Shown here piece after piece: positions 15,472 to 41,945 of a stretch of 64,000 bases of DNA. Under the pieces are notes generated by a model. That model ran no database searches. It was not told the origin of the DNA and worked only from the letters and a program-made list of their open reading frames with translations. Source of the stretch: a virus; the IMG/VR virus record IMGVR_UViG_3300021519_000877, positions 1 through 64,000 of that record; one strand, 5' to 3'. Within the stretch, counting starts at the first letter, position 1, and the number at the start of each line of letters is the position of its first letter. Both the position numbers and the translations under genes were made by a program.

Positions 15472-15473
15472 TA

Positions 15474-17315: not shown

Positions 17316-17319
17316 AATT

Positions 17320-19200: not shown

Positions 19201-19213
19201 GGAAAAGGATTAA

Positions 19214-21187: not shown

Positions 21188-21202
21188 TACTACGGATAAA
21201 TT

Positions 21203-23973: not shown

Positions 23974-25227
23974 TTATTTATAATAAGCAGTCTGGCCATA
24001 TGGTGCAATTATGGATTCGTTACCGTGGATAATAAACAGCGTTTCACAGTATTCTTCTGGACCCCAGCTACCACAAGGATAACCGTCTGTAAACATGATA
24101 AAGCGTTTTGGTTCAATATCGTTTTCTTTCATAAACTCAAAATTAGCATCAAAGTCTGTGCCGCCACCACCCTTAACTTCATAAGTTAAAATGTCGCTAG
24201 CAGTATCTGATGTAAATTCAGCAAAGTTATAAACCGCTGTATCAAAACACCAAAGTTTAAGTTTAAAATCTACGTATTCGTCCATAATGCCTTTAACTTC
24301 ACTAATAAAGTCTTTGGCCTGTTTGTCCGAAATACTACCACTCATATCAATTGCACAGCATACATCAACTGTTTCATCATTAATCATGCCTGGCAAAATT
24401 GCGCCCGACATTTGTGATTTACGATTTGGACGAGTAAAGCTAAAGTTACTTTTTAGAATGCTTTGGATATTCATGCGTAACAATTCACGCCAATCCATTT
24501 TAGGTTCAGTAAAGTCTGAAATCATTCTAGCAACACCTGCTGGAATTTTACCAGCGCCAGCAGCCTGTGCGGCACTTACCATTGCTTCTTTGATTTCATC
24601 GCGGATTTTTTTCTTATCTTCTGCAGATAAACGTGGACGACCTTTGCCGGTACCTTCTGGCCCATCGCCTTCTCCATCACCCTCTGGACCTTCTTCACCA
24701 TCTAAGTGTTCATCAAGCAATTCGCCTAACGAGCCGATATCGATCTTTTCTGCTTTTTCATACAGATCGTCATAAACTTCTTCGTAGCTCTTACCGCGAT
24801 ATTTATTATCCTGAAAAATCTTAATCCAATCAGGAACTTCGCCAATACGTTCATCTTTAAGGATTTGATTAACACAATAGTCAGCGGCAATATTACTTAA
24901 TTGAGGATCACGACTTTGACGACGACCCATATGGTCAAATACATTGTGTAGGACTTCGTGTGCAAATCCAAACTCTGCTTGTTTTGGAGTAAGACGATCT
25001 ACAAAGCCTACATTGTAATAAAATGTGCGACCATCTGTAGCAAGTGTTGGGCACCAGTCTGATGCGTCAACTAATTTTAAACGGGTAGCTAAGTTACCAA
25101 AAAACGGATGACGCAACAAAAGACCAACACGAGCAGTAGTAAGTTTTTCAATAACCTTGTTCTTTTCTTCGCGAGTAAATTCACGAACTTTTTCTACTTT
25201 CTTACGCTCTTGTTTCATTACAGTCAT
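23974..25227 (-). CDS. HEXXH metallopeptidase-like + VWA domain protein (DUF2201-type), partner of MoxR ATPase
   Basis: TLATDGR, AHEVLH, acidic/Gly linker, MIDAS DMSGS, GGGGTDF, FTDG. Confidence 0.85.
   Translation of the reverse strand: MTVMKQERKKVEKVREFTREEKNKVIEKLTTARVGLLLRHPFFGNLATRLKLVDASDWCPTLATDGRTFYYNVGFVDRLTPKQAEFGFAHEVLHNVFDHMGRRQSRDPQLSNIAADYCVNQILKDERIGEVPDWIKIFQDNKYRGKSYEEVYDDLYEKAEKIDIGSLGELLDEHLDGEEGPEGDGEGDGPEGTGKGRPRLSAEDKKKIRDEIKEAMVSAAQAAGAGKIPAGVARMISDFTEPKMDWRELLRMNIQSILKSNFSFTRPNRKSQMSGAILPGMINDETVDVCCAIDMSGSISDKQAKDFISEVKGIMDEYVDFKLKLWCFDTAVYNFAEFTSDTASDILTYEVKGGGGTDFDANFEFMKENDIEPKRFIMFTDGYPCGSWGPEEYCETLFIIHGNESIIAPYGQTAYYK
23975..23982 (-). promoter_or_regulatory. 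T4-type late promoter consensus TATAAATA
   Basis: Exact TATAAATA on - strand, 13 nt upstream of ATG at 23961. Confidence 0.5.
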
Positions 25228-25490: not shown

Positions 25491-26573
25491 TTAGTTCTCC
25501 ATTGCTGAAATAATATATTTGCCATATTTCTCATGAAACTCATCAAAGCTCTTGAGCTTGCTAGCATCGAATGGCAATGCATATTGTGTTAATGCAACCT
25601 TAGCACCCATAACTACTAACTCGGTTGGAAAGTTATCCATCATAAAGCGGAAGAAACAATCCGCCATGTCATTCCAGTTCTTAACTTTCTTTTCATGTGC
25701 TGTTTGTAATTCATAGCACATAGAAATTGTCAAAGAATACATCGCTGAAATTTCTTTAATTTCTAATTTCTTAACTTCGCCATTTAAGATTGCTTCTGGC
25801 TTAGGCAACTGTTTGGCAATCTTACGATGTGCCATAAATTTAACAGCCAGACCGTCCCCGATGGCACCTGCTACAAGATCAGTGAGAGTGTTCTCTGACA
25901 AGTCATCATCACCGAGGAGGTCTGAAACGAATGACCAAGAGCGTGGCGTAGCAAATGCACGGCTTGAGCTCTTTGGATCAAAATCATAAAGGTCTTGTTT
26001 TGCGAAACCACAGTAGCCTACAACTTGCTCGTGGATCTTATTCTTAACAGCCCATTCTTGCCAATCATCAAAGTTAGTTTTAAGTTCTAAATGTAGGAAA
26101 CGATTGGCCAACGGAGCAGGCATACGATAAGTAACACCTTTATCTGATTCTCTGTTACCAGCGGCAACAATACTAACACCTTTTGGCAAATGATATGTGC
26201 CAACACGACGATTTAAAATTAACTGATAAGCCGCTGCCTGTGTAGCAGGAGCCGCTGAGTTAAGTTCGTCCAAAAACAACACAGCGGTTGAGTCTGGATC
26301 GCTAGGCAATTCTGCTGGCGCCGCCCATTGCATGGTGTGTGATTCTGGATTGAAGAATGGAATACCTTTAATGTCTGTAGGTTCCCAAAGTGATAAACGA
26401 ACGTCTACTACTTCGCGATCGGTTTCTTCTGCGATTTGTTTAACGATATCGGATTTACCAATACCTGGAGCACCCCAAAGGAATACTGGACGACTTACTT
26501 TAAAGCATTTACGGATAGCCGCTTTAGCTTCATTTGGAGTTTGTGTGCGGTTTGAACTGATTGACTCTGCCAT
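25491..26573 (-). CDS. MoxR-like AAA+ ATPase
   Basis: Walker A GAPGIGKS, Walker B LFLDELN, AAGN sensor, PLANRF arginine finger, ATPRSW. Confidence 0.9.
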   Translation of the reverse strand: MAESISSNRTQTPNEAKAAIRKCFKVSRPVFLWGAPGIGKSDIVKQIAEETDREVVDVRLSLWEPTDIKGIPFFNPESHTMQWAAPAELPSDPDSTAVLFLDELNSAAPATQAAAYQLILNRRVGTYHLPKGVSIVAAGNRESDKGVTYRMPAPLANRFLHLELKTNFDDWQEWAVKNKIHEQVVGYCGFAKQDLYDFDPKSSSRAFATPRSWSFVSDLLGDDDLSENTLTDLVAGAIGDGLAVKFMAHRKIAKQLPKPEAILNGEVKKLEIKEISAMYSLTISMCYELQTAHEKKVKNWNDMADCFFRFMMDNFPTELVVMGAKVALTQYALPFDASKLKSFDEFHEKYGKYIISAMEN

Positions 26574-26651: not shown

Positions 26652-27049
26652 GTTGGGGTTTCTTCGGTGTTGTTTTTAAGCGACATTGCTTTGGCCATAC
26701 CAAACTTTTCAACATCCCCACTAAAAAGGACTAATTGGACAGCAGTCTTTTCTTTGAATACAATTATGGACTTTTTGGTTATGTAATATGGACCATCAAT
26801 AAACCGATCTAGCCAAATTGTAGTTTGATTAGTAAGGGTAAACTCTTTTGGAAACTCTATATTGTAGCTTTTCATATCCATTTGTTCAGTGAATACTGTA
26901 AAGCCTTCTTCAGTAAGGCGCATACCGCCTACTGCTTTTTTACGTGAGTTTTGCCAAATAATTGAATGATTTTTAGCCAGGCTTTTTGCATCATCTGGCC
27001 AACCTAACTGCTTACTTACAACTGTAGTTAAATGACTTTTTATGTCCAT
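26648..27049 (-). CDS. Hypothetical protein
   Basis: 133-aa ORF, translationally coupled (TAATG) to upstream gene. Confidence 0.65.
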   Translation of the reverse strand: MDIKSHLTTVVSKQLGWPDDAKSLAKNHSIIWQNSRKKAVGGMRLTEEGFTVFTEQMDMKSYNIEFPKEFTLTNQTTIWLDRFIDGPYYITKKSIIVFKEKTAVQLVLFSGDVEKFGMAKAMSLKNNTEETPT

Positions 27050-27333
27050 TACTTGAGTAGTTCACCAGTGGTTAATTTATATACAGCAAACTCAGTGCAG
27101 TTAAACAGTTTATTCAACTTTTCTGCTAGATTGATAGCGTGACCGCTATTTGAAAAACTTACTTTTTTGTATTTTGGACCTAAATGATTTGCAATCATAC
27201 TTGTGGTCTTTAAATTAACAGGTTTCCCTTTATAAAACACAGCCCAAATGGCTTCGGCTTCGAGAACTTGTTCTGTCTTGTAAGTTTTTTTACTGGTTAT
27301 TTCTAATAGCACCTTTGGCTTCGGTCTCGACAT
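27049..27333 (-). CDS. Hypothetical protein (basic); start 27333 or 27348
   Basis: MSRPKP... ORF; GGGGA SD-like sequence precedes ATG 27333. Confidence 0.65.
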   Translation of the reverse strand: MSRPKPKVLLEITSKKTYKTEQVLEAEAIWAVFYKGKPVNLKTTSMIANHLGPKYKKVSFSNSGHAINLAEKLNKLFNCTEFAVYKLTTGELLK

Positions 27334-29500: not shown

Positions 29501-29766
29501 ATTTTACCTTTTAATATACCTACCAAAAATTCTTCTTTGGTTACCCAGCGATATAAGAATACCGGATCACCAGGCCCTGTAATCATTCGTGTACCTTTAT
29601 AACCTAACTTCATCCAAATCCATTCATCTGAATAGTAACATTTACGTGGCCGCAGAAAGAATTTTAATTCCCAAGTAGCCCTTCCGTGAAATACATCGTA
29701 TTCTTCATCCATTCCGGGTATCGGCATAGGGGTTACTCTAGCGTATCCAAACTTTATCTTCCCCAT
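29494..29766 (-). CDS. Hypothetical protein
   Basis: 90-aa ORF overlapping neighbours by a few nt; true start uncertain. Confidence 0.55.
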   Translation of the reverse strand: MGKIKFGYARVTPMPIPGMDEEYDVFHGRATWELKFFLRPRKCYYSDEWIWMKLGYKGTRMITGPGDPVFLYRWVTKEEFLVGILKGKIC

Positions 29767-29927
29767 TTAATCTTTAACCAAATACGTTCATGTATATAAT
29801 GTACCGCAGTTAAAATAATGTGAATAATAACAGCGTTTCCTAATCCCGTCCACAAAGCCGTAATTAGCAATGCAATAATACGATATGTTAATGCACGAAC
29901 TATGGTTCTTTTGTGGAGTTCAGTCAT
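29754..29927 (-). CDS. Small membrane protein, DUF2061-like
   Basis: R.IVRALTYRII...YIHERIW.KIKWG signature; TAATG coupling with queE stop. Confidence 0.65.
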   Translation of the reverse strand: MTELHKRTIVRALTYRIIALLITALWTGLGNAVIIHIILTAVHYIHERIWLKIKWGR

Positions 29928-30781
29928 TAAGTTCCCCACTCGTTCTTAAACAAAGGTACTTGTAAGCGGTCACTATATCGTAAACCGTTTTTCATTGCTA
30001 ACAATGCCACGGCCTTATTATTCATAGCGTATACACTTTCAACGCCTCCGACCGGCATTAAGTAGACAGGACCTGTAAATCCAGCGGCACGATAAATGTC
30101 CACTGCTTCTAATGCTTCTTCAGCATCTTCTTCGGTTGCAACAACAAACTTCAAATATGTATAACCCGCTTCTTCGTATTCACAAACAACTTCTGGCTTA
30201 ATAGCCTCATCTGGATGCTCGCCTGAACAACTTAGTTTGGCACTAACTGAGAATGTAACTTCTCTAGCTAACTGATGATTAGTATTGCGCCATTTGATTA
30301 AAAACTCTTTAAATTCTGGAGTTAGCTTTTGAGTACCATTTGTTTCAAATGTGATCTCTTTTAACTCTTGCATCTTAGGATGATCCAACAAGTCGGGATA
30401 AGCACGTTGCCAACCTAATAACGGCTCGCCACCTGTAATAACAAGATGTGCGTCCTGCCATTTATTCTCAGGAAGAATTTCCATAGTGCGTTCTACAATG
30501 GCATCACTAGTAAGCATTGGCGACAAGTCCTTAAAACTAGGATGCCACGAAGCATAGCTGTCACAGCCTGTTGATACTAGAGGTAAGTCTTCATACTTTG
30601 TAAACATATGAGCAACTTCGGAAATCTCTTCTGCCTCTGCACTTAGTTCACCTTTTGACATACCAAAGCCTGCACATTTAAAATTGCATCCAAATGTGCG
30701 TAAGAACACAGAAGGCACGCCCATATAACGTCCTTCACCTTGTATACTGTAAAATAATTCTGCTATTTTAAGTTTGCTCAT
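29927..30781 (-). CDS. queE: 7-carboxy-7-deazaguanine synthase (radical SAM) with atypical Cys spacing
   Basis: ELFYSIQGEG..G.PSVFLR..GCNFKC, GCDS, VITGGEPLL, ETNGT, SAKL, YLMPVG, RLQV; co-located with folE and TGT-like gene. Confidence 0.88.
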   Translation of the reverse strand: MSKLKIAELFYSIQGEGRYMGVPSVFLRTFGCNFKCAGFGMSKGELSAEAEEISEVAHMFTKYEDLPLVSTGCDSYASWHPSFKDLSPMLTSDAIVERTMEILPENKWQDAHLVITGGEPLLGWQRAYPDLLDHPKMQELKEITFETNGTQKLTPEFKEFLIKWRNTNHQLAREVTFSVSAKLSCSGEHPDEAIKPEVVCEYEEAGYTYLKFVVATEEDAEEALEAVDIYRAAGFTGPVYLMPVGGVESVYAMNNKAVALLAMKNGLRYSDRLQVPLFKNEWGT

Positions 30782-30978
30782 TTATTTGCTCGGTTACTTG
30801 TGCAACTATCATTCCATGTTTCTGCAGCCTGCTTTTGGTATTGCTCTAAATCCCATTTATCTTTTGCCGCAATATATTGATCTTCAGTAAGTCCATGCCA
30901 GCCGCAACAATCACCTGTTGGACTACGACCACACCCACATGTACCAATCTTACCAGATTCATTAGCTCTTACTTGCAT
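30778..30978 (-). CDS. CDGSH-like [2Fe-2S] mini-protein (putative)
   Basis: CGCGRSPTGDCCGWH resembles the C-x-C-x2-S-x3-P-x-C-D-G-S-H motif. Confidence 0.55.
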   Translation of the reverse strand: MQVRANESGKIGTCGCGRSPTGDCCGWHGLTEDQYIAAKDKWDLEQYQKQAAETWNDSCTSNRANK

Positions 30979-31431
30979 TATTCAGTTCCTTTCAAACTAT
31001 CCATAATTACTGTGCGTTCTTTATTATACACTCGTTTTTGGAGAAACGCAATAAACTCCTTGTGCTCCATTGTCTCTGCTTTATTTAGAATATTTTGGCA
31101 AGCCCGCAAATAATATCTACGACGAGCAGCCTTGGTAACACCTTTCATATCTTCAACTTTAAATTGAAAAGTGCGGACTAACGCATCTGCCGCCTCGCTT
31201 GGTTTACCGTGCCATTCTACATCACCATCATTGGTGATAACTAATACGGCCTTATCTTCTTTGTTATTAAATGAAATCATATGGTTAGTTGGCATTAAAT
31301 TTCCAATTGTTAGTCCTGTTCCTGCCGAATATCCTGTGTTCCAATTTCCAACAGCAATATTATTATTTGCAATTGACGACCAGGTGTAATTGCTAACATT
31401 GCCAGTTAAAGTAAATTGGATAGGCTCAATC
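30978..31431 (-). CDS. Hypothetical protein (start uncertain)
   Basis: Frame open to 31655, but the upstream part overlaps the HIT gene; real start likely near the HIT stop or at a downstream Met. Confidence 0.5.
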
Positions 31432-31839
31432 GTTTCTATATTCCGGCGACTTATAATTGCCTTTGCCCGGGATTGTGTTGCGAACACCGCCAATTGGATC
31501 CTCAACGTCGCCCTGGCGACGAGGGATAAGATGAACGTGAGGCCACATGACAGTTTGTCCTGCACTTTCGCCATAATTAAATCCAATATTGAAACCGTCC
31601 CATTCTCCGGCTTCCACTTTTGTTTTACCCCAATCCACAGCTTCTTCAAATGCATCTTTTAACACTCCTAACGAATTATATTTAGGCACAAATAATAAGT
31701 GCCCAGGGGTACACGGATATTTGTCGAGAAATATTGCAACATGAAAATCTTCACTGATACAATTATCCCAAGGTGCCCCGCTTTCTTCTAATGTTTCTGG
31801 ACCATCAAAAATAGTATACTTGATCATTTTGTCCACCAA
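31426..31839 (-). CDS. HIT family nucleotide hydrolase
   Basis: D.YP.TPGHLL.VPK, GFNIG.N.G..AGQTV.WPHVHLIPR. Confidence 0.92.
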   Translation of the reverse strand: MVDKMIKYTIFDGPETLEESGAPWDNCISEDFHVAIFLDKYPCTPGHLLFVPKYNSLGVLKDAFEEAVDWGKTKVEAGEWDGFNIGFNYGESAGQTVMWPHVHLIPRRQGDVEDPIGGVRNTIPGKGNYKSPEYRND

Positions 31840-32366
31840 TCTTCGTATGGAAAATCAATCCACACATCATTTTCTGCTTTGTTGATTTCTACCCCGCAGT
31901 AGTCCATTTTAACTTTACATTTGCTAGCAAGATTATCTACAACTACAGCAAAGCGCACATTGTTATTCCACACATTATTCCAGCGATCATCTTTTGGTAA
32001 ACAACCGCTTTGCCAATCCTCCATAATCCAGTTTAGGGTAGCACCACTATCATTAATGTCATCTACAATAAGAATATTCTTTTTACCATCGCCAGAACAC
32101 ATTGGATCGTGGATGGCATATCCAAATGCGTCATCGGCCATCCAAAGATTACTTTCTGGGCCAATAAAATCATTATGGTCTCTAAGACTAACACCTAATG
32201 TAAACATGGGCACATTAAAGTAATGACTAATCATAACAGCAGGCAATAATCCACCGCGGGTTAGTCCTACAATATAATCAGGTTTCCAATTGCTAAGACT
32301 AATATCTCGGCATATTTTTCCCATATTAAATTGAAACTCTTCCCACTTAATTTGCTTTTTGTTCAC
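31824..32366 (-). CDS. Type I phosphoribosyltransferase (Gpt/xanthine-guanine PRT-like)
   Basis: IVGLTRGGLLPA, PRPP-binding ILIVDDINDSGATL, C-terminal WIDFPYE. Confidence 0.88.
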   Translation of the reverse strand: MNKKQIKWEEFQFNMGKICRDISLSNWKPDYIVGLTRGGLLPAVMISHYFNVPMFTLGVSLRDHNDFIGPESNLWMADDAFGYAIHDPMCSGDGKKNILIVDDINDSGATLNWIMEDWQSGCLPKDDRWNNVWNNNVRFAVVVDNLASKCKVKMDYCGVEINKAENDVWIDFPYEDWWTK

Positions 32367-32823
32367 GTCTATCCTTTAAGTATTGTTCGTTATGAATCCA
32401 TTTATTATTAACTAAAAATCCCCACTCACGCACTTTCTTCATTGGCATGAATAATGTCCAAGCAGTTACCCCAGGGTGAAGCTCAATGCGATGATAGCTG
32501 CTAGGGCGGCAGATGCGAAAATGACCGGGGCCACGCCATTTGCGTATTTCGCACGTTTTAATGCCGTCTTTGTTGAAACCAGGGATCCACTCATAGTATC
32601 CACCTTTTAAAATTAGTGTAGCATATGACCACGGATGATCATGAACATCATCTGGGTCACCCTTTAGAAACTTGTGTAGGAATAAATTGAAAGGAAAGTT
32701 GTCACGATCCTTTAAAAATAAGTAGTAACGTTCTAAATATGGCTCATCGCATAGTCGATCTAAAATAACACGTTTGCGGCCGAGACTGTCTAACCAATTA
32801 AGAAACTTGTTTATCAGTGTCAT
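32347..32823 (-). CDS. Cupin-fold protein
   Basis: LH....D...HDHPW..ILKGGYYE...YHRI..AWTLF..WGF cupin metal-binding pattern. Confidence 0.7.
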   Translation of the reverse strand: MTLINKFLNWLDSLGRKRVILDRLCDEPYLERYYLFLKDRDNFPFNLFLHKFLKGDPDDVHDHPWSYATLILKGGYYEWIPGFNKDGIKTCEIRKWRGPGHFRICRPSSYHRIELHPGVTAWTLFMPMKKVREWGFLVNNKWIHNEQYLKDRREQKAN

Positions 32824-33010
32824 CTTGACTCCTTGCTATATCATACATTAGTTTGAATTGTTCCCAACTGTATTGTAAGGCTGGATATTTTTCACACATA
32901 CGTCCTAATTTAATAGGATCAATTTTATATTCAGTTAGCCAGGTAGTTTGTTGATCTAAATGCCCGTCCTCTTCATACATTTCATACAGAACATCTTTAA
33001 TATGTTTCAC
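32798..33010 (-). CDS. Hypothetical protein
   Basis: 70-aa ORF, GTGA overlap with upstream gene. Confidence 0.55.
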   Translation of the reverse strand: MKHIKDVLYEMYEEDGHLDQQTTWLTEYKIDPIKLGRMCEKYPALQYSWEQFKLMYDIARSQDDTDKQVS

Positions 33011-33333
33011 AGCTTTAAAGTTTCCATGGTAATAATCTTGCCAAGTGCTTTGCCGATATCTTCACCGTCGATAATAACATGTAGACTATTAATCTCACGA
33101 TCTTTCTGGCGATCATAAAAGCTAGTCTCTACAATAGTACCACCGGCTGCTTTGAATACTTTGAACTGAATACCACGGTCGTTATGAAACGATACTCCTG
33201 CTGTTTGGCCAAGTGAGACTTCATAAAGTTCACTGTCCACTTCACCGCTATCGTTTAACCAATCACGTAACCATTGTTTAAAAGTTCTGCGTTTACTTCG
33301 CCGATTAATTGAGATGCCGTATTTCTGTCTCAT
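33007..33333 (-). CDS. Hypothetical protein
   Basis: 108-aa ORF, ATGA overlap with folE. Confidence 0.6.
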   Translation of the reverse strand: MRQKYGISINRRSKRRTFKQWLRDWLNDSGEVDSELYEVSLGQTAGVSFHNDRGIQFKVFKAAGGTIVETSFYDRQKDREINSLHVIIDGEDIGKALGKIITMETLKL

Positions 33334-34145
33334 TTGCCTACGTAGCTCTGTTGTAGTTTAATATTGTCAAAGAACTCTTTCTTAGTATTCATGTCATCTT
33401 TAAATGCACCTGTTAATACTGTAGTTTGAGTTAAACTGCTACCTGCCATAATACCTCGATTTTCACAGCAACCGTGAATGGCTTGTATGTAAACTGCAAT
33501 GTTCTTTGAACCAGTAGCATTAGATATCTCACGTGCTATATCATTGCAGAGCTCTTCTTGCAAAGTACCACGGCGAGCACACCACTGAGCAATTCGAGTA
33601 TACTTAGACAAACCAATAAGCCTGTCGGCAGCAATAATTCCAATGTAGGCAACACCAGAAACAGGCTGATGGTGGTGACTACACATACTACGCAATTCAC
33701 TCCGCACAACCAACATACCTTTGTAGCCATCATCCACCTCATTAGGAAAACTTGTTGCATCTGGCGCTTCTTCGTAGCGACCTGACATAATTTCATTAAA
33801 ATACATTTTAGCAAGACGCTTTGCAGTACCTTGACTGTTAGGGTCATTCTCACGATCAATAAGCAATGTATCTAACACACTCTCAAATGCCTTAGTGGCT
33901 TCTTTGATTAAGATAGCTTTATCTTTTTCAGTGATGTATTCACTAATATTATCCCCAGCCCAAAAGCGTTTCTTATCACGCTTCATCTTAAAGCGAATAG
34001 CATCGGCTAAATTTGCTTCTTTGTAACCTTTGTCGCTCATATTCATTGCGGCATCTTCGTATCCAGGATGATACGGTGCTTCCTTAACTAAGTCAGGATT
34101 ATTATTCATTACTGCTTTTAAATCGTCTGATGTAAATGTTGTCAA
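33330..34145 (-). CDS. folE: GTP cyclohydrolase I
   Basis: TAKRLAKMY, SMCSHH, G.AYIG, IGLSK..R, LQE.L, HGC...RG, TTVL.G.F; TTG start with GGAG RBS. Confidence 0.93.
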   Translation of the reverse strand: MTTFTSDDLKAVMNNNPDLVKEAPYHPGYEDAAMNMSDKGYKEANLADAIRFKMKRDKKRFWAGDNISEYITEKDKAILIKEATKAFESVLDTLLIDRENDPNSQGTAKRLAKMYFNEIMSGRYEEAPDATSFPNEVDDGYKGMLVVRSELRSMCSHHHQPVSGVAYIGIIAADRLIGLSKYTRIAQWCARRGTLQEELCNDIAREISNATGSKNIAVYIQAIHGCCENRGIMAGSSLTQTTVLTGAFKDDMNTKKEFFDNIKLQQSYVGK

Positions 34146-34187
34146 TTCTATTTCTCCGAGTTTATGCCGTGGATGGCTTGTATACTA

Positions 34188-35291
34188 CTATTTTATATTC
34201 TTTAGCAGATTATTACAACTAAAAAAATGTTCAGTTAAATCTAATGCTTGTTTATTTAGGCTAGGTAAAAGTTTATTGTAATTTTCCATTTGCTGAATAA
34301 TCTTAGCACATAGTTCTTTACGATGTATTATATATTTTTCAAATGATTCTGTCCACTCGCTTGGATATTTAAATCCTTCATAATACATTTCTGAATATGA
34401 TAAACGATCTGGAACCATCGGAATAGCATCTACAAGTGCGCCTTCATAGCAACTAATACCTAGCGTTTCTTGTAGGTTGGCTGAAAATACTAGTTTAGCT
34501 TCACCTAACAAATTGTGATATTCGTTTTTACTAAGTTGTTGATCCTGGCAAACAACAAACTCATATTGTGGCAAGTGTTCTTTTAAGTCACGGAATATTT
34601 CAACTTGTTTCTCTGGTGCAATTCGATGTGGAAATAAAATTAAATCACGTTTGGGCATATGTTTGTATGGAGTCAACAGCCCTTCCATATATTCCATAGG
34701 CCAACCAGTTTTAACTATCTTATCTGTAAGTGTACCTGCACGAAGTTCTGCAAGATCTTCATCAAACCAAGGATTTTCAGTTACTGGTCCATTTTGTAAT
34801 AGATTAGTAAAAAACATTTCAATATGGAACTGTGTGGCAAAATAGTTGTAATCAAATGCGTGATAAAAACTCTTTTCAGCATTTCTAACCCACGGCTTAT
34901 CTCCAACAAGACGTCCTAAAAAGTCTTGAGGATCGTAACTGCCAGCATGCCACAAGCCGTGTATTGTTACAGGAATCTGTAACAATTCACTCATATACTT
35001 TAAGTTGATGACACCAGGGTGCCAAGCATCAGTAAAAATAAAGTGATCGCCAGGACTAACTGATCCGGCGCAAAATAAGCGGCCAATTTTTTCAACTTGA
35101 CTAGACTTATATATATTGGTGCCACCAAAATTAAGGAAAGCGCCAGGAGTAGTGGCTTGAGGAATATCCTCAGGGCCTGAGATAATTTGAACATTGTGTC
35201 CTTTCTTTCGTAATATAGCAGGTACATGAGTTTTCCACTCGCCGGTATAGCGAGTGGGTACACTTTCTAAATCGACTAAAAATATAGTCAT
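34188..35291 (-). CDS. Glycosyltransferase (GT-B fold, GT4-like)
   Basis: C-terminal LFPHRIAPEKQ...EYHNLL..AK..FS...QETLGISCYEG...PMVPDRLSY.E nucleotide-sugar binding signature. Confidence 0.75.
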   Translation of the reverse strand: MTIFLVDLESVPTRYTGEWKTHVPAILRKKGHNVQIISGPEDIPQATTPGAFLNFGGTNIYKSSQVEKIGRLFCAGSVSPGDHFIFTDAWHPGVINLKYMSELLQIPVTIHGLWHAGSYDPQDFLGRLVGDKPWVRNAEKSFYHAFDYNYFATQFHIEMFFTNLLQNGPVTENPWFDEDLAELRAGTLTDKIVKTGWPMEYMEGLLTPYKHMPKRDLILFPHRIAPEKQVEIFRDLKEHLPQYEFVVCQDQQLSKNEYHNLLGEAKLVFSANLQETLGISCYEGALVDAIPMVPDRLSYSEMYYEGFKYPSEWTESFEKYIIHRKELCAKIIQQMENYNKLLPSLNKQALDLTEHFFSCNNLLKNIK

Positions 35292-35512
35292 TAAGCTTCT
35301 CTACGTTCCTTAGCTTCACGACGTGCTTTGCGCTGGAGATACTCTTGAGTGCGCTGCCAATCTTTATAAGCCTTAGATCTGTATAGATCAGCTTCGTTAA
35401 AATCGATCAATTCCAAACGGCAATGATCGTGCCATGTTTCTAGATCACTAAAGATCTTTGCTACTTCGGGCTTCATAGTTAGATACTTCGCTAACCACTT
35501 TGGCTGTGCCAT
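35291..35512 (-). CDS. Hypothetical protein
   Basis: 73-aa ORF, TAATG-coupled to glycosyltransferase. Confidence 0.6.
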   Translation of the reverse strand: MAQPKWLAKYLTMKPEVAKIFSDLETWHDHCRLELIDFNEADLYRSKAYKDWQRTQEYLQRKARREAKERREA

Positions 35513-35523
35513 GTTGTGTTTCC

Positions 35524-35949
35524 TTAAATTACTATTGAGTTTGTTGGGCGAGTAAGATTATAAGAAATGACGCATCCGTTCTCGCCGTCTTCGGATACAT
35601 CAATTACTACAGCTCGGTTTGGATACCTTGCCGCAATTTGGTCATACAAATCATCTGCGATCATTTCGCACGATTTGAAATCTAATTGAATAATGTCTGT
35701 GTTGTATAAACTTTCTAACCAGCGTTTAAATTGAATAAATTCAATATCGCGATCATTATGGAATACGTCAATTGCCACACGGAAGTGAAAGATATGACGA
35801 TGTGCGTTTGCTAGGAAACTTACATCATATTCACCTGCGGTACATAATGCTGGATCTGTGCCAGCGGCTGGATAACGATGGATACCTTCTTTGCGGAACG
35901 ATACCCAAATTTGTCTACCTGCGGCTTGTTTAATTGTTTCAATGCTCAT
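35524..35949 (-). CDS. QueD/PTPS-like T-fold protein with LxxxHRHxF motif (candidate DpdL-type CDG decarboxylase)
   Basis: EGIH, LANAHRHIF, EF..FK, SCEMIA, VSEDGENG align with QueD EAAH/CxxxHGH/DF..LK/TAENIA/V.ET; catalytic Cys absent. Confidence 0.65.
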   Translation of the reverse strand: MSIETIKQAAGRQIWVSFRKEGIHRYPAAGTDPALCTAGEYDVSFLANAHRHIFHFRVAIDVFHNDRDIEFIQFKRWLESLYNTDIIQLDFKSCEMIADDLYDQIAARYPNRAVVIDVSEDGENGCVISYNLTRPTNSIVI

Positions 35950-36491
35950 TTTATGATCTCGTCTTTACCATATTCGTCCCAGCTTGTAAACTGTTCACGT
36001 CCTGTTAAACTGTGTAATGTATGACACCAAACACCTGGATTACTTGCCTTGAAGTCTTTGTCGTCTAGTTTAATTGTAGCATTATATCCTAACTGTGTCA
36101 AGTATGGAATCTTCACAGATAGTTGAGGAATAAACTGGCGATGCTCAACTAGCCCACTTTCTAACAACCCTTCAACTTGTGCAACATCCAAATCCAAGGT
36201 GCACCAAAAATCAGAATCCAACCATTCTTCAATCATAGTTTCCCAAGGTTTCCAGCCTTCACCATCATTAACATCTAGTTTTGGAAAACTTTGATTAGCA
36301 CCAAAATAGATATGAGTAATAGGATATCCGCCTAGCATATAGTGTGTTTCGAGAGCCTCTGCGATGGCCTCTCGTGATTGAACCCCAACAACAAATAAGG
36401 TAAGATGACCGAACGCTGGAGTTTTTTCAATTTCCTTGCCAACGAAGAATGTTACTGCTTCGCTGGTACCGGTTTCATAATCACGCTTCAT
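35946..36491 (-). CDS. Hypothetical protein within deazaguanine cluster
   Basis: 181-aa alpha/beta ORF (TLFVVG, HIYFGANQSF) with ATGA coupling to the QueD-like gene. Confidence 0.65.
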   Translation of the reverse strand: MKRDYETGTSEAVTFFVGKEIEKTPAFGHLTLFVVGVQSREAIAEALETHYMLGGYPITHIYFGANQSFPKLDVNDGEGWKPWETMIEEWLDSDFWCTLDLDVAQVEGLLESGLVEHRQFIPQLSVKIPYLTQLGYNATIKLDDKDFKASNPGVWCHTLHSLTGREQFTSWDEYGKDEIIK

Positions 36492-36623
36492 TTAGGTAGA
36501 TGCCCACCAGAGAACACCAATGACAATTACCAATCCTACTAGGAAGATTCGTCCATGCCGTTTCTGTGTTGCAAATTCTTCTTCCTCGGACCCATACTCA
36601 AATCCAATTTTATCTTTTTTCAT
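36492..36623 (-). CDS. Small single-pass membrane protein (43 aa, not in ORF track)
   Basis: MKKDKIGFEYGSEEEEFATQKRHGRIFLVGLVIVIGVLWWAST*; fills the gap and abuts the next ATG. Confidence 0.55.
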   Translation of the reverse strand: MKKDKIGFEYGSEEEEFATQKRHGRIFLVGLVIVIGVLWWAST

Positions 36624-36825
36624 TTATTTTCTTTCTAAGTTCAGTATTTTCATCTACTAACTGTTTGGTTAGTTTTTTATAGTATAATAAATCTTCTTCT
36701 TGATGTGACCGCTCTATGGTACATTTTTCTAAATCTTTAGGAATATCATTGACCCGTTTATTTAGGCCTGCGAGGTAGCCAAAAAATATTCCTACTAACA
36801 ACCAAATAATATCAGTGGTCATCAA
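36610..36825 (-). CDS. Small membrane-anchored coiled-coil protein
   Basis: N-terminal hydrophobic helix then coiled coil. Confidence 0.55.
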   Translation of the reverse strand: MMTTDIIWLLVGIFFGYLAGLNKRVNDIPKDLEKCTIERSHQEEDLLYYKKLTKQLVDENTELRKKINEKR

Positions 36826-38480
36826 CCAACCTCACCTATAAGTTCAGTTTCTAACGCTCTTAAATCGTCATCGTCTGGGTTTTCTAAATCAACTTCTTCA
36901 GCTTTGGTTACAGTTTCTAATTCAAACAAGTTACCAAATGTATTTTGGGCGGGGCCACCCTGTAATCGAGCACCTTCCAAACTAGTTAAGAACGCTTTGG
37001 CTTTTGGCTCTTCTAACATAGCAAGTGCTTCTGCTAAATCTTTAGTTTCGAATAGTTCTGTAACAAAACGATCAAAGTATAAAATGTTGCGTGGAACCCA
37101 ATCTGAGTATTGATCACTAGTGCTGTCTTTGGCATTCAACTTGTTCCAATGACGCCAATCTGGTTTGGCTTTAGCAATTTCAATATCCATAAGTTGATTA
37201 GCACGTTGAACAGCCTTGATATGACATTCAACATTATGGCCCATCATTAATGCGTAGGCAAAACTATCCCAACTTGTTTTATTAGGAATCTTACCTAACT
37301 TATTAAGACGAGGTACTTCGTGATAATGATCTGAATTTAGGTGATCAAATTTAACAGGCTCGCCCTTTTTATCTACTCCTAATTCTGCATCTGTTTTACG
37401 AGTACCAATATTATAGTAAGCAATGTCTCCCATTACTAATCTACGACCAATTTCACTTTCAAAAGGAAACGGAATATCTGAACCCGCTAGTGATTTGTTG
37501 TCTGGGGCTTTGTCCATAATAACACTCCAACGCTTTGGCGTGTGTTGTGCATTTGTGTAGACAAGTCCGTGCGCTGTTGCAATAAACGGTGAGGCGCAAT
37601 CAAAAGAGATGGTAAATTCTTCATTAATATGTTTCCTAATTTGTCGTTGAATTGAAGTCAAATAGCAAGACCAGTCTAATTGGGCAGTGCCCAAGAAGTG
37701 CATCCAGTTCTTACCTTTTAACAAATTATCTTCACGTAGAATCATTAAGCGACGTAATGTGATATCCATCTTACACATATTGGCGCCACCCATCGCCCAA
37801 CCTTCTGCTTCACGTCCGGCATACTTGCCTGCAGGATCTGAAAACTCTTTTACACCTTGATACCACTTTTCTGCGGTATCCCAATCACCACCTTGTAATA
37901 CGTTAAGCCATTTAGTTTGCCCCAAACGATTCATCAAGAAGTAATCATTATTGAAACGTGTCTTTTCTAAACAGTCATCAAATGTTTTCAATCCAGTCTT
38001 TGGACTATGAATATGATCGCAAGCCCAAGTCGGCACGTCCAACATCATTGACCAATCTGCTGTGAGCTCAAGCCACTCTAAAATACTTTGGCGTGTCTTA
38101 TTAGCCGCAGGACCATCGAAGTTCAACCAATCAAATTTAAGAACACCCTTACCGATCTGGTATCCACCAGAGTCACCTAAGATCATTGTATTGTTACGAT
38201 CTCGTTGCTGGATCATCGATTCTTGTGTCACTGACTTGACTAAGTCCAACTGTGCGTGACCTGCTGAATACAAACCATACTTGTAGGTAAAGTAACCTTC
38301 TTCTGGATTTAAAAAGTTCATGCCTTCGATGCCGCGATCAAACCCCGCAGGCATACGATCATCTGCGATAAACTTTTCTAATCTCTGTTTAGCAATATAT
38401 GTTGAATAGAAGCTACTAATAGCTGGCAAATAGACAGCATAGTCTTTTTGTAAAGGAGTTAAATTGACTGGTGGGTTCAT
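36822..38480 (-). CDS. dpdA: tRNA-guanine transglycosylase-fold protein, DpdA-like DNA base-exchange enzyme
   Basis: TGT motifs in order: GDSGGYQ, MMLDVP, VLQGG, GWAMGG, HFLG, SFDCAS, GHN; clustered with folE, queE and a QueD-like gene next to replication genes. Confidence 0.75.
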   Translation of the reverse strand: MNPPVNLTPLQKDYAVYLPAISSFYSTYIAKQRLEKFIADDRMPAGFDRGIEGMNFLNPEEGYFTYKYGLYSAGHAQLDLVKSVTQESMIQQRDRNNTMILGDSGGYQIGKGVLKFDWLNFDGPAANKTRQSILEWLELTADWSMMLDVPTWACDHIHSPKTGLKTFDDCLEKTRFNNDYFLMNRLGQTKWLNVLQGGDWDTAEKWYQGVKEFSDPAGKYAGREAEGWAMGGANMCKMDITLRRLMILREDNLLKGKNWMHFLGTAQLDWSCYLTSIQRQIRKHINEEFTISFDCASPFIATAHGLVYTNAQHTPKRWSVIMDKAPDNKSLAGSDIPFPFESEIGRRLVMGDIAYYNIGTRKTDAELGVDKKGEPVKFDHLNSDHYHEVPRLNKLGKIPNKTSWDSFAYALMMGHNVECHIKAVQRANQLMDIEIAKAKPDWRHWNKLNAKDSTSDQYSDWVPRNILYFDRFVTELFETKDLAEALAMLEEPKAKAFLTSLEGARLQGGPAQNTFGNLFELETVTKAEEVDLENPDDDDLRALETELIGEVG

Positions 38481-38483: not shown

Positions 38484-39221
38484 TTAAGCCTGTGCTGGAA
38501 TGATATATTTGTAAGTAGCAATGCCACTGTCTAATTCAATCTGCATAGCACCTTGATCATTTGAGATACTAAGTTTTGTATTGTTAGCATCGGCGATCTT
38601 CAAAATGCTTAATACTTGGCTAACAGGCCATGTCCAAGATTTTGTTAAGTTACCTGTAACATTGGCTGCAAATACAAACTCACCACCATGCGTTGATTGG
38701 TCACCAAAGATAAATTTAAGATTACCATTCTCAGTTTTAGTTAGGAATGTTGTATGCTCGCTATTAGCGGCAGCTTGAAAGTTAAAACGTTGAATAGCAG
38801 TTACGCTTGGCTCAACTTCTAAGTCCCATTTTGCGCCGCGGAACTTAACAGTTTTAAGTTTCTCGTTAATAACTTCAGTGTTCATAAAACGATAATCGTT
38901 CTTGAAATCACCTTCTTTATTTTCAAAGTGAATGCTAACTGGCAATTCTTCACCATTACGTTCTGCATTTACAATTTCAATTTTTGCATCTTCTTTGTAA
39001 ACAGGGCAATCCAAATGAATTTTTAACTTGTTAAGTTGCGGCATACCAAACACACCCTTCATTTCCGGAACCGCTTTGTTTACTTCACCATACATAATAA
39101 CACTACGGTCTTCAGCCATAGAGTCAAGTTTAGTATCGGCGTCGCTACCTGTGATTTTTACAATATCTAAAAATCCCAAGCTATGTGTATGTCCTACGAT
39201 GTCTTTCAATAGATCCAGCAT
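38484..39221 (-). CDS. Putative sliding clamp (gp45/PCNA-like processivity factor)
   Basis: 245 aa with two-domain beta-alpha pattern ending 'YKYIIPA'; immediately downstream of DNA polymerase B; clamp loader present in window. Confidence 0.6.
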   Translation of the reverse strand: MLDLLKDIVGHTHSLGFLDIVKITGSDADTKLDSMAEDRSVIMYGEVNKAVPEMKGVFGMPQLNKLKIHLDCPVYKEDAKIEIVNAERNGEELPVSIHFENKEGDFKNDYRFMNTEVINEKLKTVKFRGAKWDLEVEPSVTAIQRFNFQAAANSEHTTFLTKTENGNLKFIFGDQSTHGGEFVFAANVTGNLTKSWTWPVSQVLSILKIADANNTKLSISNDQGAMQIELDSGIATYKYIIPAQA

Positions 39222-39275: not shown

Positions 39276-41945
39276 TTATTCAAAATCAAATAAACTACCA
39301 AAATTGTTATCTTGTGTTGTGCTACTTAAATCCCATTCAAGAACTCCAATAAGATTATCTAACTTATTGTTAATAATAGCAGTTTCCATTTCTGAATGAT
39401 TAAACGGTAAATCCTTAAACCATTGTGGCAAGCGCATTTCATCTACTGGATACGCAATACTGGTATATCCTAACGGATTATCTTTCATCTTACAAACAAT
39501 AACTTTCATACCGTCTACAATCTGTTGACTATACTTGTCACCATTCATTGTTTTTAAAGTATTCCAATTAATACTTGCTCGCACATGACCAGGCATGTTT
39601 GTTTTACCAGCTTTCTTTTCTTTGGCTTGGTAGTCAGTAATATTGTTAGCACGTTTTGGACTACCTTTCTCCCAACCAGGTCTAGCCTTAAACTCAGTGC
39701 GGAATTCACTAATACGATCCAGGATTTCAGTTTCTTGAGCACCATCTAAAACTTTATTTAGAAGTTCGCTTAAAAAGTTCTGCATAAATTCTGGAGTATC
39801 TGAACGCTTCAAGTCTAAGCCCATAGCCTTCATCTTGCCAACACCGTTATCGTCATCTTGTCTCTTGCCATCTTTGTCATAATAACGAACAGCGTACCGC
39901 TTTTTAGTAATAAACAATCCACGGTCTGCTACAAGTTCACGACCTGCTTTAATAACCTCACCGCGATTTTTTGGACAGTGAAAGTCATCTAACATGAACT
40001 GTGGGAATGTTGCATTTACTTCTTCTGCGATTTGATCGTAGAGTTGCACCACTGTATCTTTGTTCCAAGGAATAATACCTTTATTAATGTCGTTCTTTAA
40101 AATGGGCCAAGCACTAAAATACACAGAGTCGGTATCGCCGTAGATAATGCTCTTGCCAATATAATTGTATTCACCGGCTACAAACTCATTTACTTTAGCA
40201 GCCATGTGACGGGCAATTCTACGCCCAGTGAGCGTTGTTGATTGACCAATGCGCTTATCGAAGAAACGGCAACCAGGATTAAGAATAGCCCCATAGAGAC
40301 TGTTAAGCAAAATCTTTTTAACCAGTTGACGCTTGTCCCAATATTCTTCTTCAATTTCATTTTCTGCCTTTATTGCATCTCTAAGTTTTGCCTGCATGTC
40401 TTTACGTTCAGCATACCAGCGTTTTAATAATCCAGGAATAATTCCTTCTTTTGCATAGGTAAAGATTGTGCCGTTAGCACTTAAGATCCAGGGTTGGTTA
40501 TTTTCATAAACCATATCATAGATTTGAGCACCACTTAACACATCGGTTGACCCATCTTCCCAGTCGAGGATAATATCATTGGCCTTGTCTTTGTTCATAA
40601 CAAATTCAAATTCATTTGAGCCAAACTTGCCTTCCCATGCTGCCGCAAAACTACTACCCTTGGCCATCTTAGCTTCAATTTCTTCTTTGGTATAATCCTG
40701 ACGCAACTGCCCAACAATAGTTTCTGGGCCCATGTTAAGTGCTCTAATTGCACTAGGATATAGTGAGTTAATATCCATTGAACCGATCCACTCATGCAAT
40801 CCTTTCTTTGGATACGCTACATACGCACCAGCCGCTTGATTATCACCGCGGTCATCTTGTCTTGGACGACTTGGCACAATAAGACCTTTTGCGTGTGCTT
40901 CAATAATAATAGCCTGTTCTGTTACAGCTACAGCACCCATGGTTGTTGCCAATAGAACTGTGTTTTCGTGTGCAATGGTATTGGCAAGATCAATAAACTT
41001 CAGCTTCTTATCTAGTTTATCTAACAACGCAGTATCTTGTCTGTTGTATATGATAAAAGTTCTAAAGTCATTATTATATAATTGATCTAATGTTCCTTCG
41101 TAAACGGTTTTGGATTCTCCAACTTCCATTTCTCCAATAGCATCAAGTCTGTAAGTATGTCTTTCTTCGTATGTATACTTTCTATATAGTTCGAGTGAGT
41201 CAAGGTGAACCCTGCCCACGAGGTCATAAGTGACCGCAGTTTTTCCGTATTTTTCATATTCTCTTTTCTTTGGAAATTGATCCCATAAGCATAATCTACG
41301 AGTATCTTCTTTTGAGAGAACTTTGATAATACGATTAACAGTATAAGGCATATCAAAGCCCTCACTGTTCCAACCACTTAAAATATCTGCATCTTCGATT
41401 AAGTTTAGGAATGTATCTAACATTTCGTGTTCTGTTTCAAACAAGATAGTGTTAGGAATGTCTTTAATTTGCTCTTGCGCCTGCGCCATTGTTAGAGTCT
41501 TTGGCGGTACTGCTAAACATACTAGGGTATCTAACCACTGTAGGTGAACTGAAATTGCAGTAATTGGCATAAATGCGTCATCTGGTGCCGCATAGCCACG
41601 CTCTGGATCGAAGTCCACTTCGATATCCCAAAATGCTACATTTAGTTTTGGTGCGTCGATGTTTAGATAGTTTTCTTCTAATACACGAAACACTGGATTA
41701 ATGTCTGACTCAAATAGTCTGTGACTACTGTGAATCTTTTGTTCTTTAATGTGTTCTTTCCAGCTCTTGCTAGTAACTTTGCTTAGTGCGTCCCCATACA
41801 AACTTGTGTGTTTGCCCTTTTGATCAGGATAGTAAAAAACGTATCTTGCGGGGAACTGCTGAAATATACGGCCTTTCTTTGGATCTCTTTCGACAACAGA
41901 TACGATATCTGTGTCACGATCCCATCGTGCATCTACATACGACAT
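39276..41945 (-). CDS. polB: Family B DNA polymerase (T4 gp43-like) with 3'-5' exonuclease
   Basis: DIEVD (ExoI), GWNSEGFD (ExoII), YNRQD (ExoIII), DINSLYPS, KILLNSLYG, YGDTDS, KKRY. Confidence 0.96.
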   Translation of the reverse strand: MSYVDARWDRDTDIVSVVERDPKKGRIFQQFPARYVFYYPDQKGKHTSLYGDALSKVTSKSWKEHIKEQKIHSSHRLFESDINPVFRVLEENYLNIDAPKLNVAFWDIEVDFDPERGYAAPDDAFMPITAISVHLQWLDTLVCLAVPPKTLTMAQAQEQIKDIPNTILFETEHEMLDTFLNLIEDADILSGWNSEGFDMPYTVNRIIKVLSKEDTRRLCLWDQFPKKREYEKYGKTAVTYDLVGRVHLDSLELYRKYTYEERHTYRLDAIGEMEVGESKTVYEGTLDQLYNNDFRTFIIYNRQDTALLDKLDKKLKFIDLANTIAHENTVLLATTMGAVAVTEQAIIIEAHAKGLIVPSRPRQDDRGDNQAAGAYVAYPKKGLHEWIGSMDINSLYPSAIRALNMGPETIVGQLRQDYTKEEIEAKMAKGSSFAAAWEGKFGSNEFEFVMNKDKANDIILDWEDGSTDVLSGAQIYDMVYENNQPWILSANGTIFTYAKEGIIPGLLKRWYAERKDMQAKLRDAIKAENEIEEEYWDKRQLVKKILLNSLYGAILNPGCRFFDKRIGQSTTLTGRRIARHMAAKVNEFVAGEYNYIGKSIIYGDTDSVYFSAWPILKNDINKGIIPWNKDTVVQLYDQIAEEVNATFPQFMLDDFHCPKNRGEVIKAGRELVADRGLFITKKRYAVRYYDKDGKRQDDDNGVGKMKAMGLDLKRSDTPEFMQNFLSELLNKVLDGAQETEILDRISEFRTEFKARPGWEKGSPKRANNITDYQAKEKKAGKTNMPGHVRASINWNTLKTMNGDKYSQQIVDGMKVIVCKMKDNPLGYTSIAYPVDEMRLPQWFKDLPFNHSEMETAIINNKLDNLIGVLEWDLSSTTQDNNFGSLFDFE

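Follow-up and report, generated by a model that had tools for sequence, protein, structure and literature searches.

A conserved glycosyltransferase accompanies DpdL and a long DpdA-like protein in a probable 7-deazaguanine DNA-modification cassette of large phages

A compact run of genes at 29754-38480 of a 64,000-nucleotide stretch of viral DNA (the window; bases 1-64000 of the 74,425-bp IMG/VR virus record IMGVR_UViG_3300021519_000877, CheckV completeness ~20%) encodes enzymes of 7-deazaguanine synthesis together with a protein of tRNA-guanine transglycosylase (TGT) fold and a glycosyltransferase (GT). The minus strand holds every gene from 41945 to 28467, in the order family B DNA polymerase (PolB), a 245-aa clamp-like protein, the run 38480-29754, the 'virion structural'-like gene orf125 and an exonuclease. 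The 17 minus-strand open reading frames (ORFs) downstream of PolB and the clamp-like gene mostly overlap and share one orientation; junctions within the run are overlaps of 1-26 nt or gaps of no more than 118 nt, making a single transcription unit very probable. A first-pass annotation, made from the sequence alone, had described a co-oriented, tightly coupled 7-deazaguanine DNA-modification cluster downstream of polymerase and clamp. The ORF map and hidden Markov model (HMM) searches confirm its coordinates and layout, and the presence of FolE and QueE with a TGT-fold transglycosylase supports its functional reading. Very probably the locus is a 7-deazaguanine DNA-modification cassette of the DpdL type; systems of this kind are known, and the DpdA branch that it uses was previously unannotated. 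Its central genes are:

36822..38480, minus strand: long DpdA-like DNA transglycosylase, 552 aa, TGT fold (AlphaFold2 (AF2) and Foldseek, hhalign, alignment)
35946..36491, minus strand: orf181, conserved core protein with motifs TLFVxG, HIYFGANQSF and KIDDKDFxATNPGVW (homology)
35524..35949, minus strand: DpdL, 141 aa, QueD/T-fold paralogue, proposed decarboxylase of 7-carboxy-7-deazaguanine (CDG) (phrog_17812 1.6e-33; motif; tblastn)
34188..35291, minus strand: GT-B/GT4-type glycosyltransferase, 367 aa (EX7E (E275...E283), R223, K228; AF2/Foldseek)
33330..34145, minus strand: FolE, GTP cyclohydrolase I (PF01227 1.8e-39; phrog_2197)
29927..30781, minus strand: QueE-like radical SAM enzyme, CDG synthase (phrog_2076 4.7e-53)

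The 552-aa protein had been called TGT/DpdA-like, a label borne out by predicted structure and alignment. No Pfam, PHROG, NCBIfam or PDB sequence match was found for it, a family-profile search of PDB gave nothing useful, and PF01702 did not match it by hmmscan, nor anything in its own record even at E 10. Its AF2 model (predicted local distance difference test score, pLDDT, 87.4; 61-sequence alignment) retrieves by Foldseek bacterial and eukaryotic tRNA-guanine transglycosylases for all of the top 50 PDB matches, at probability 1.0; matches in BFVD are phage TGT/DpdA proteins, including the DpdA of Vibrio phage nt-1 and, weakly, phiST DpdA3 (E 2e-3). D103 (GDSGGYQ), D148 (LD(V)P) and D294 (SFDCASPF) are invariant in the 61-sequence alignment, and hhalign, which aligns the family with DpdA of the ACP17/X1/nt-1 type (79%, E 1.6e-5), pairs these motifs with DSGGLQ, FDEIP and SYDS of the ACP17-type enzyme. 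The three residues correspond to D102, D156 and D280 of Z. mobilis TGT. As modelled, the protein is confirmed to be a divergent TGT-fold transglycosylase with both catalytic Asp residues present. It shares with bacterial TGT/DpdA proteins of PF01702 the predicted TIM barrel, DSGGxQ, the substrate Asp and the nucleophile Asp, but differs from them in its lack of the CxCxxC...H zinc subdomain (no CxCxxC occurs in the 552-aa sequence and no conserved Cys cluster in the alignment) and in an extra helical C-terminal region of ~250 aa.

This long DpdA branch is large. More than 7100 clusters (90% clustering) are similar to the window protein, and a further search with a profile of three distant homologues returned more than 3200 clusters, whose overlap with the former set was not assessed. 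Members are 500-600 aa long, occur on contigs of up to 360 kb and are all labelled 'hypothetical'; a related-locus search seeded with the PA5oct DpdA returned no loci. The family adjoins deazaguanine synthesis genes in four lineages. In Vibrio phage 2.275.O (L101 7908-15000), the long DpdA gene is followed by genes for a 370-aa amidoligase-like protein, QueF, a YhhQ-type transporter, a QueC-like protein, a nucleophile aminohydrolase and FolE, and here the branch seems to serve a preQ1-type pathway. This neighbourhood lends independent contextual support to a deazaguanine substrate for the long DpdA, which, from gene context, would insert 7-deazaguanine into DNA.

The 141-aa protein, first described as a QueD paralogue, carries LANAHRHIF at residues 46-54; this LxxxHRHxF pattern replaces the CxxxHGH motif of QueD, and the catalytic Cys of PTPS/QueD is missing. 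LxxxHRHxF is the signature of DpdL, a QueD paralogue proposed as CDG decarboxylase and reported in QueC-less phages (Cui et al. 2023, PMC10516641). Correspondingly, the window protein is 34% identical to phiST gp040 (CGPG_00067; 85% of the query, E 3e-9, tblastn), which adjoins MazG, and 53% identical to the PA5oct and ACP17 copies, so that the motif and these homologies identify the paralogue as the published DpdL. Neither Pfam nor NCBIfam matched it, and a PDB sequence search gave nothing usable. In E. coli, DpdL with DpdA of phiST or ACP17 gave no 2′-deoxy-7-deazaguanosine (dDG), and the authors suggested that further enzymes are needed (PMC10516641).

Next to DpdL, orf181 has ~8000 metagenomic relatives, none annotated. 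Its homologues lie beside DpdA in ACP17 and elsewhere in the PA5oct genome (26 kb off). Pfam, PHROG, NCBIfam and PDB (including a family-profile search) gave no assignment and the ESM Atlas no usable match; glycoside-hydrolase-like fragments returned there for an orf181 homologue scored below 0.9 and were not relied on. The Phosso 'glycosylase' was considered as an orf181 homologue and rejected, having no similarity to it.

The 367-aa protein is predicted to adopt a GT-B fold with two Rossmann domains (AF2 pLDDT 93.2), and Foldseek relates the model to BshA, MshA, PglA and glycogen synthases (E 1e-11 to 1e-7). An EX7E motif with basic residues for the nucleoside diphosphate (NDP)-sugar is characteristic of GT4 enzymes; in this family, E283 is invariant and E275, R223 and K228 nearly so. 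None of Pfam, PHROG and NCBIfam matches the window protein itself, and a single-protein PDB sequence search gave nothing useful. PF00534 is matched by 40 of 60 relatives (best 1.3e-8) and by the X1 homologue (8e-12), and a profile of the family, which comprises 1096 representative clusters, finds the glycosyltransferase 8xsg in PDB (1.4e-5). The model and the PF00534 matches of relatives uphold the initial naming of this protein as a glycosyltransferase. Isoelectric point and net charge were uninformative as clues to a DNA or a small-molecule acceptor. We rejected a role in serving hydroxymethyl pyrimidines because no gene of the ThyA/hydroxymethylase family (PF00303) occurs in ACP17, X1 or G001, a 331-kb, 93%-complete relative of the window phage. 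A distant GT relative (25% identity) in Xanthomonas phage PhiXhv-15 (L102 4819-8053) lies with genes for GlmS and a GlcNAc-malate-deacetylase-like protein and without DpdL, which suggests a different, amino-sugar-based modification pathway at that locus.

Two known kinds of glycosyltransferase frame what this enzyme might do. T4 alpha- and beta-glucosyltransferases are GT-B enzymes that decorate a phage DNA base, 5-hydroxymethylcytosine, after DNA synthesis and so evade restriction; unlike the case here, their acceptor is a pyrimidine hydroxymethyl, and they fall outside the top 50 structural matches of the window GT. HuiG of huimycin synthesis acts on a free 7-deazapurine from a FolE/QueD/QueE pathway, using UDP-GlcNAc. 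It is an actinomycete secondary-metabolite enzyme whose acceptor is O-methylated preQ0, with no DNA involved, and is likened to the window GT by function only.

FolE is assigned by Pfam and QueE by PHROG, as first proposed. The window QueE shares 28-30% identity with the annotated QueE proteins of ACP17 and PA5oct; Pfam Radical_SAM and five NCBIfam QueE models (partial matches) stayed below cut-offs. The first-pass annotation had also stressed what the cluster seemed to lack, QueC and QueF, with the caveat that queC or queD could lie outside the window, and had proposed CDG or decarboxylated 7-deazaguanine as a candidate new DNA base. In the 74-kb record itself, we found no match to PF01242 (QueD), PF06508 (QueC) or PF01702; QueF was not searched for. 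The record is collinear with G001 from DpdA outward and its end corresponds to G001 position 27,443, ~200 bp short of a G001 QueD gene at 26,724-27,245; therefore QueD has almost certainly been cut off by the contig end. A search of five whole relatives or isolates found a bona fide QueD in every one (52-105 bits), and its apparent absence here is most probably a contig-end artefact. Nor was the statement on QueC confirmed as made. Four of five relatives encode QueC-like PP-loop proteins of 206-235 aa, 90-175 kb from the cluster, with SGGxDS and C-x(9-20)-C-x2-C-x2-C motifs; PF06508 scores are 44.8 and 23.7 bits (cut-off 22), and only the C-terminal part of QueC is matched strongly. Because the record covers ~20% of the genome and relatives carry such a divergent gene, the absence of QueC cannot be judged for the window phage. 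PA5oct and ACP17, cultured phages that carry the module, give no QueC match at all, and for them the QueC-less state holds. In relatives, the QueC-like genes (L081 1180-1800, plus strand; L084 1093-1800, plus strand) sit beside genes for an Asp/Arg-hydroxylase-like protein and a radical SAM/SPASM enzyme, and the three may form a separate small pathway. The bases proposed at first are already known chemistry, since dDG replaces dG fully in phiST DNA and 2′-deoxy-7-carboxy-7-deazaguanosine (dCDG) is found in a Sulfolobus virus (PMC10516641).

Among 50,697 phage records, megablast found no match to the cluster. Its conservation is described here from two sets of 80 IMG/VR loci, anchored on DpdA and on GT; several DpdA-anchored loci are incomplete, and counts from that set are minima. 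The conserved order in the DpdA-anchored set is PolB, clamp-like, DpdA, orf181, DpdL, orf73, GT, (FolE), cupin, QueE, orf125 and exonuclease, with FolE in at least 28 of the 80, the phosphoribosyltransferase (PRTase) in at least 14 and the HIT-family enzyme in at least 7. In the GT-anchored set, DpdL lies immediately upstream of GT in 77 of 80 loci (the other three end within 1.4 kb) and orf181 is present in 73; QueE and a DpdA always accompany GT, and a TGT-fold enzyme with intact catalytic Asp is always present. The DpdA, GT, QueD-like and 181-aa neighbourhood, whose conservation the first reading had singled out for checking, is conserved in this clade.

Beyond this clade, a GT4 gene lies close to DpdL in phages of varying gene order, which brings the number of lineages to about seven:

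PA5oct-like jumbo phages: DpdA-GT-DpdL-x-(epimerase/dehydratase-like)-PRTase-QueE
Sinorhizobium phage Phosso: clamp-x-DpdL-GT-x-FolE...QueE; long DpdA elsewhere
Acidovorax phage ACP17: QueD-x-FolE-orf181-DpdA-GT-DpdL-QueE
Xanthomonas X1: GT-DpdA-DpdL-QueE; in BUDD, GT and DpdL ~1.5 kb apart
Burkholderia BCSR5: QueD-DpdL-...-GT-DpdA?-x-QueE
Synechococcus phage BUCT-ZZ01: QueE-XGPRT-x-QueD-FolE-GT-DpdA-DpdL-GT

The DpdA proteins of ACP17, X1 and BUCT-ZZ01 belong to another subfamily than the long branch; since phages with the GT-DpdL pair use two DpdA subfamilies, GT tracks DpdL and not one DpdA type. In BUCT-ZZ01, two group-1 glycosyltransferases flank DpdA-DpdL (L104 3665-5008 and 6656-7822), and a xanthine-guanine phosphoribosyltransferase (XGPRT) gene stands between QueE and QueD. 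The DpdL phages phiST, Bakedbeans and Ahp1 have no GT nearby.

Among cultured phages, the Pseudomonas jumbo phage PA5oct (Wroclawvirus; gp316-gp322) shares the module and its replication setting: PolB, clamp-like protein, long DpdA (42% identity), GT (44%), DpdL (53%), PRTase, QueE, an orf125-like protein and exonuclease. It differs in the order DpdA-GT-DpdL, in the distant position of orf181, in the absence of the cupin, in having FolE outside the cluster and in an extra gene, gp320 (L089 12416-12934), for a short NAD-dependent epimerase/dehydratase-family protein, which hints at nucleotide-sugar tailoring. PA5oct DNA resists cleavage at G-containing restriction sites, indicating a modified G that has not been chemically identified, and END nucleases able to sense hypermodified DNA, as well as a G-specific variant, act against the phage (PMC12191111). 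ACP17, one of the DpdL/DpdA phages listed by Cui et al. (PMC10516641), has orf181 (30%), GT (35%), DpdL (53%) and QueE side by side; unlike the window, it combines them with a 424-aa DpdA of the nt-1/X1-type subfamily in a minimal cluster devoid of PRTase, HIT and cupin genes. The dDG system of Cellulophaga phage phiST likewise joins FolE, QueD and QueE of the CDG pathway to DpdL and a divergent TGT-fold DpdA by the polymerase, with no QueC in the cluster. Its DpdA3 belongs to a different branch (259 aa against 552 aa) and it has neither GT4 nor orf181; its product, dDG, was measured, whereas the window cluster is known from genes alone.

The remaining genes of the run, and the two upstream genes that place it within a replication module, are:

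39276..41945, minus strand: family B DNA polymerase, context (PF00136 1e-36, PF03104 1.8e-17)
38484..39221, minus strand: clamp-like 245-aa protein, context (phrog_12062; 3 nt upstream of DpdA)
36610..36825, minus strand: orf71, small protein (sub-threshold family matches only; overlaps the DpdA stop by 4 nt)
35291..35512, minus strand: orf73, small conserved protein between DpdL and GT (at least 61 of 80 DpdA-anchored loci)
32798..33333, minus strand: orf108 and orf70, small proteins, variably present (ORF listing, family scans)
32347..32823, minus strand: cupin, 158 aa, 'cysteine dioxygenase'-type phage family (phrog_4786 6.7e-35; weak PDB cupin matches)
31824..32366, minus strand: purine (xanthine/hypoxanthine-guanine type) PRTase (PF00156 1.2e-13)
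31426..31839, minus strand: HIT-family nucleotide hydrolase/transferase, variable accessory (PF01230 1.3e-9)
30978..31655, minus strand: orf225 (ORF listing; 230-nt overlap with HIT in another frame)
30778..30978, minus strand: orf66, Cys-rich mini-protein CGCGRSPTGDCCGWH, overlapping the queE start (sequence read directly)
29754..29939, minus strand: orf61, small hydrophobic protein, weakly DUF2061-like (PF09834 E 0.003, below cut-off)

HMM matches agree with the first naming of the PRTase, the HIT protein (both Pfam) and the cupin (PHROG); NCBIfam XPRT/HGPRT models match the PRTase below cut-offs. A core role of the accessory enzymes is not supported. PRTase, HIT and even FolE vary among relatives and are therefore not core chemistry, and the cupin, whose homologues occur in 103 phage records of unrelated groups, mostly mycobacteriophages, is not counted as pathway chemistry because its family is common in phages without a deazaguanine cluster. 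As a hydroxylase creating a sugar acceptor the cupin was rejected: it is widespread without this cluster and absent from the ACP17 and PA5oct clusters. PRTases occur in the PA5oct and BUCT-ZZ01 clusters as well. The true start of orf225 is uncertain on account of the 230-nt overlap with HIT; past the HIT stop, an in-frame ATG occurs only near 31296, which means that the gene either is much shorter or uses an unusual start. Two further labels, CDGSH-like for orf66 and DUF2061-like for orf61, found little or no support, the latter resting on the weak PF09834 match listed above. The CDGSH consensus is C-X-C-X2-(S/T)-X3-P-X-C-D-G-(S/A/T)-H; orf66 CGCGRSPTGDCCGWH is one residue short of it and lacks P-x-C-D-G, and it has no Pfam, PHROG or NCBIfam match. 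Its motif suits a SEC-C-like zinc knuckle about as well.

The clamp-like protein has homologues in Phosso ('sliding clamp beta'), in PA5oct (gp314) and near the DpdA of Vibrio phage 2.275.O. In PA5oct and 2.275.O, too, the gene precedes the long DpdA by no more than ~1 kb; copies stand at L089 7912-8658, L098 6170-6910 and L101 6433-7152, and mass spectrometry found the PA5oct copy, annotated 'structural protein', in virions. The PA5oct PolB gene is interrupted by a Hef-like homing endonuclease gene (L089 2605-7831), whereas the window PolB is intact. Elsewhere in the window, one 3972-aa ORF spans 17-11935 on the plus strand; seven more large ORFs of the same orientation occupy 11937-22762, and together they presumably form a module for giant structural or fibre proteins. 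A MoxR-like AAA+ ATPase adjoins a DUF2201 metallopeptidase/VWA protein (23974-25227 and 25491-26573, both minus strand), a known phage pair. The phage also encodes chaperones, a ClpB/Hsp100-type double-AAA+ protein (Clp_N, AAA, AAA_2, ClpB_D2-small) and a full DnaJ (J domain, DnaJ_C), at 50393-52702 and 53162-53983 (both minus strand).

From these observations we lean towards reading the cluster as a replication-module 7-deazaguanine DNA-modification cassette of a large (~330-360 kb) environmental phage, a distant PA5oct relative, in which the GT is part of the pathway and adds a sugar. FolE, QueD (~40 kb upstream in relatives) and QueE would turn GTP into CDG, which DpdL, following the published proposal, would convert to 7-deazaguanine. 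The long zinc-less TGT/DpdA branch would then exchange this base for guanine in phage DNA. With an NDP-sugar as donor, the GT4 of the fixed orf181-DpdL-orf73-GT block would glycosylate the deazapurine. It would act before insertion, on the free base, following the precedent of HuiG in huimycin synthesis, or later on the DNA. The PRTase would most likely salvage the released guanine through GMP to GTP, feeding FolE, a function dispensable in most relatives. Candidate acceptors are N2 (huimycin-type), the CDG carboxyl, a pyrrole-ring carbon, or a group on a DpdL/orf181 product other than 7-deazaguanine.

Individual parts of this scheme differ in strength. That the GT, and probably orf181, belong to the deazaguanine pathway has in our view a slightly better than even chance: phiST, with plain dDG in its DNA, has DpdL without a GT. 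That the final DNA base carries a sugar is a more tentative proposal, somewhat short of an even chance; the NDP-sugar epimerase/dehydratase-like gene in the PA5oct cluster hints at such a step. Equally tentatively, the orf181-DpdL-GT trio might make a sugar-bearing 7-deazaguanine, which the long DpdA would install or the GT would decorate within DNA. Several points weigh against glycosylation and the scheme built on it. The main weakness is that 7-deazaguanine has no hydroxyl, no hydroxylase is common to all GT-bearing clusters and ACP17 has none. A TGT pocket would accommodate a bulky N2-glycosylated base poorly, the decarboxylase role of DpdL is a published but unproven proposal, and the QueC-like gene of relatives could alter the base. 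The chemistry of every member is predicted from genes alone; the 80 GT-anchored loci represent one clade, leaving about seven lineages as independent support; and large phages often carry GT4 enzymes for other ends, as the GlmS/deacetylase context in PhiXhv-15 illustrates. Of the sugar-decorated base put forward in the first reading, the GT part stands: because the enzyme genuinely belongs to a conserved module, such a base stays possible. The glycosylation of the DNA base can only be inferred, because no hydroxyl acceptor is evident on 7-deazaguanine.

The missing acceptor also speaks for the most substantial alternative, a plain dDG (or dCDG) system as in phiST, in which the GT4 acts on envelope glycans, protein or another metabolite and shares the operon by history only. 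In phiST, which has DpdL but lacks a GT, dDG replaces dG completely, Bakedbeans and Ahp1 also have DpdL and lack any GT, and distant GT relatives occur in non-deazaguanine contexts. We nonetheless judge this explanation rather unlikely, since GT lies beside DpdL in about seven lineages that between them use two DpdA subfamilies and differ in gene order, and the orf181-DpdL-orf73-GT block is fixed in the environmental clade. In addition, ACP17 DpdL and DpdA without the GT yielded no dDG (PMC10516641), and PA5oct attracts END nucleases that sense hypermodified DNA (PMC12191111). It is less probable still that a QueC-type enzyme is encoded outside the fragment, that the base is a known derivative of the preQ0 or 7-amido-7-deazaguanine (ADG) type, and that the lack of QueC is a sampling artefact. 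The ~20% completeness of the record and the PP-loop proteins of relatives, with their SGGxDS and four-Cys motifs and PF06508 scores, would fit this explanation; those genes, however, are separated from the cluster by 90-175 kb and have unrelated enzymes as neighbours, with the strong match restricted to the QueC C-terminal part. PA5oct and ACP17 carry the same DpdA/GT/DpdL/QueE module with no QueC match, in line with the reported occurrence of DpdL in QueC-less phages.

Both remaining explanations are very improbable. TubE and ToyH ribosylate deazapurines in tubercidin and toyocamycin synthesis, and a comparable nucleotide-level route would have the PRTase ribosylate the deazapurine, HIT and kinases process it and PolB incorporate a deaza-dGTP, with transglycosylation secondary. 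A purine PRTase is present in the clusters here and in PA5oct and BUCT-ZZ01, the HIT enzyme adjoins it, and the whole lies within a replication module. Against such a route, the PRTase and HIT minima among related loci are low (14 and 7 of 80), ACP17 and X1 lack both, and the TGT-fold enzyme with intact catalytic Asp is always present. Alternatively, the product might not be a DNA base, with GT, FolE and the T-fold protein making a pterin glycoside, or the TGT-like enzyme modifying tRNA. FolE, a PTPS-like T-fold protein and a GT4 do form a pteridine-glycoside enzyme set (compare cyanobacterial biopterin glucoside), and a tetrahydrobiopterin glucosyltransferase ranks 43 among the structural neighbours of the GT; that match reflects generic GT4 similarity, and DpdL lacks the PTPS/QueD catalytic Cys. 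QueE and a DpdA are always co-present, and the G-specific restriction resistance of PA5oct (PMC12191111) also argues against this explanation.

What remains is a robust, conserved partnership of GT4 and orf181 with DpdL and DpdA, present in cultured phages; gene identities, folds, catalytic motifs and linkage are observed here, while the action on DNA, what DpdL catalyses, and where and when a sugar would be attached are inferred. A glycosylated deazaguanine is plausible but unproven, and we found no literature report of one in DNA or of a GT in these phage clusters. Bases of the 7-deazaguanine type in DNA are among the main means by which phages counter restriction, and newly described defences such as END nucleases and Dag glycosylases target them. 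To this field the locus adds a large, unannotated DpdA-like branch of more than 7000 proteins at 90% clustering that is invisible to Pfam, and a GT4 with a 181-aa protein that consistently accompany DpdL in cultured as well as uncultured phages; it also points to cultured phages with the module, namely PA5oct/Paride, ACP17, X1 and BUCT-ZZ01. If the proposed sugar transfer is correct, the product would be, to our knowledge, the first glycosylated purine in a phage genome, a sugar-bearing base in a very abundant environmental clade of jumbo phages and in the therapeutic PA5oct/Paride group. It would explain the modified G of PA5oct and the inactivity of DpdL and DpdA alone in E. coli, and could also resolve how dDG is really made.

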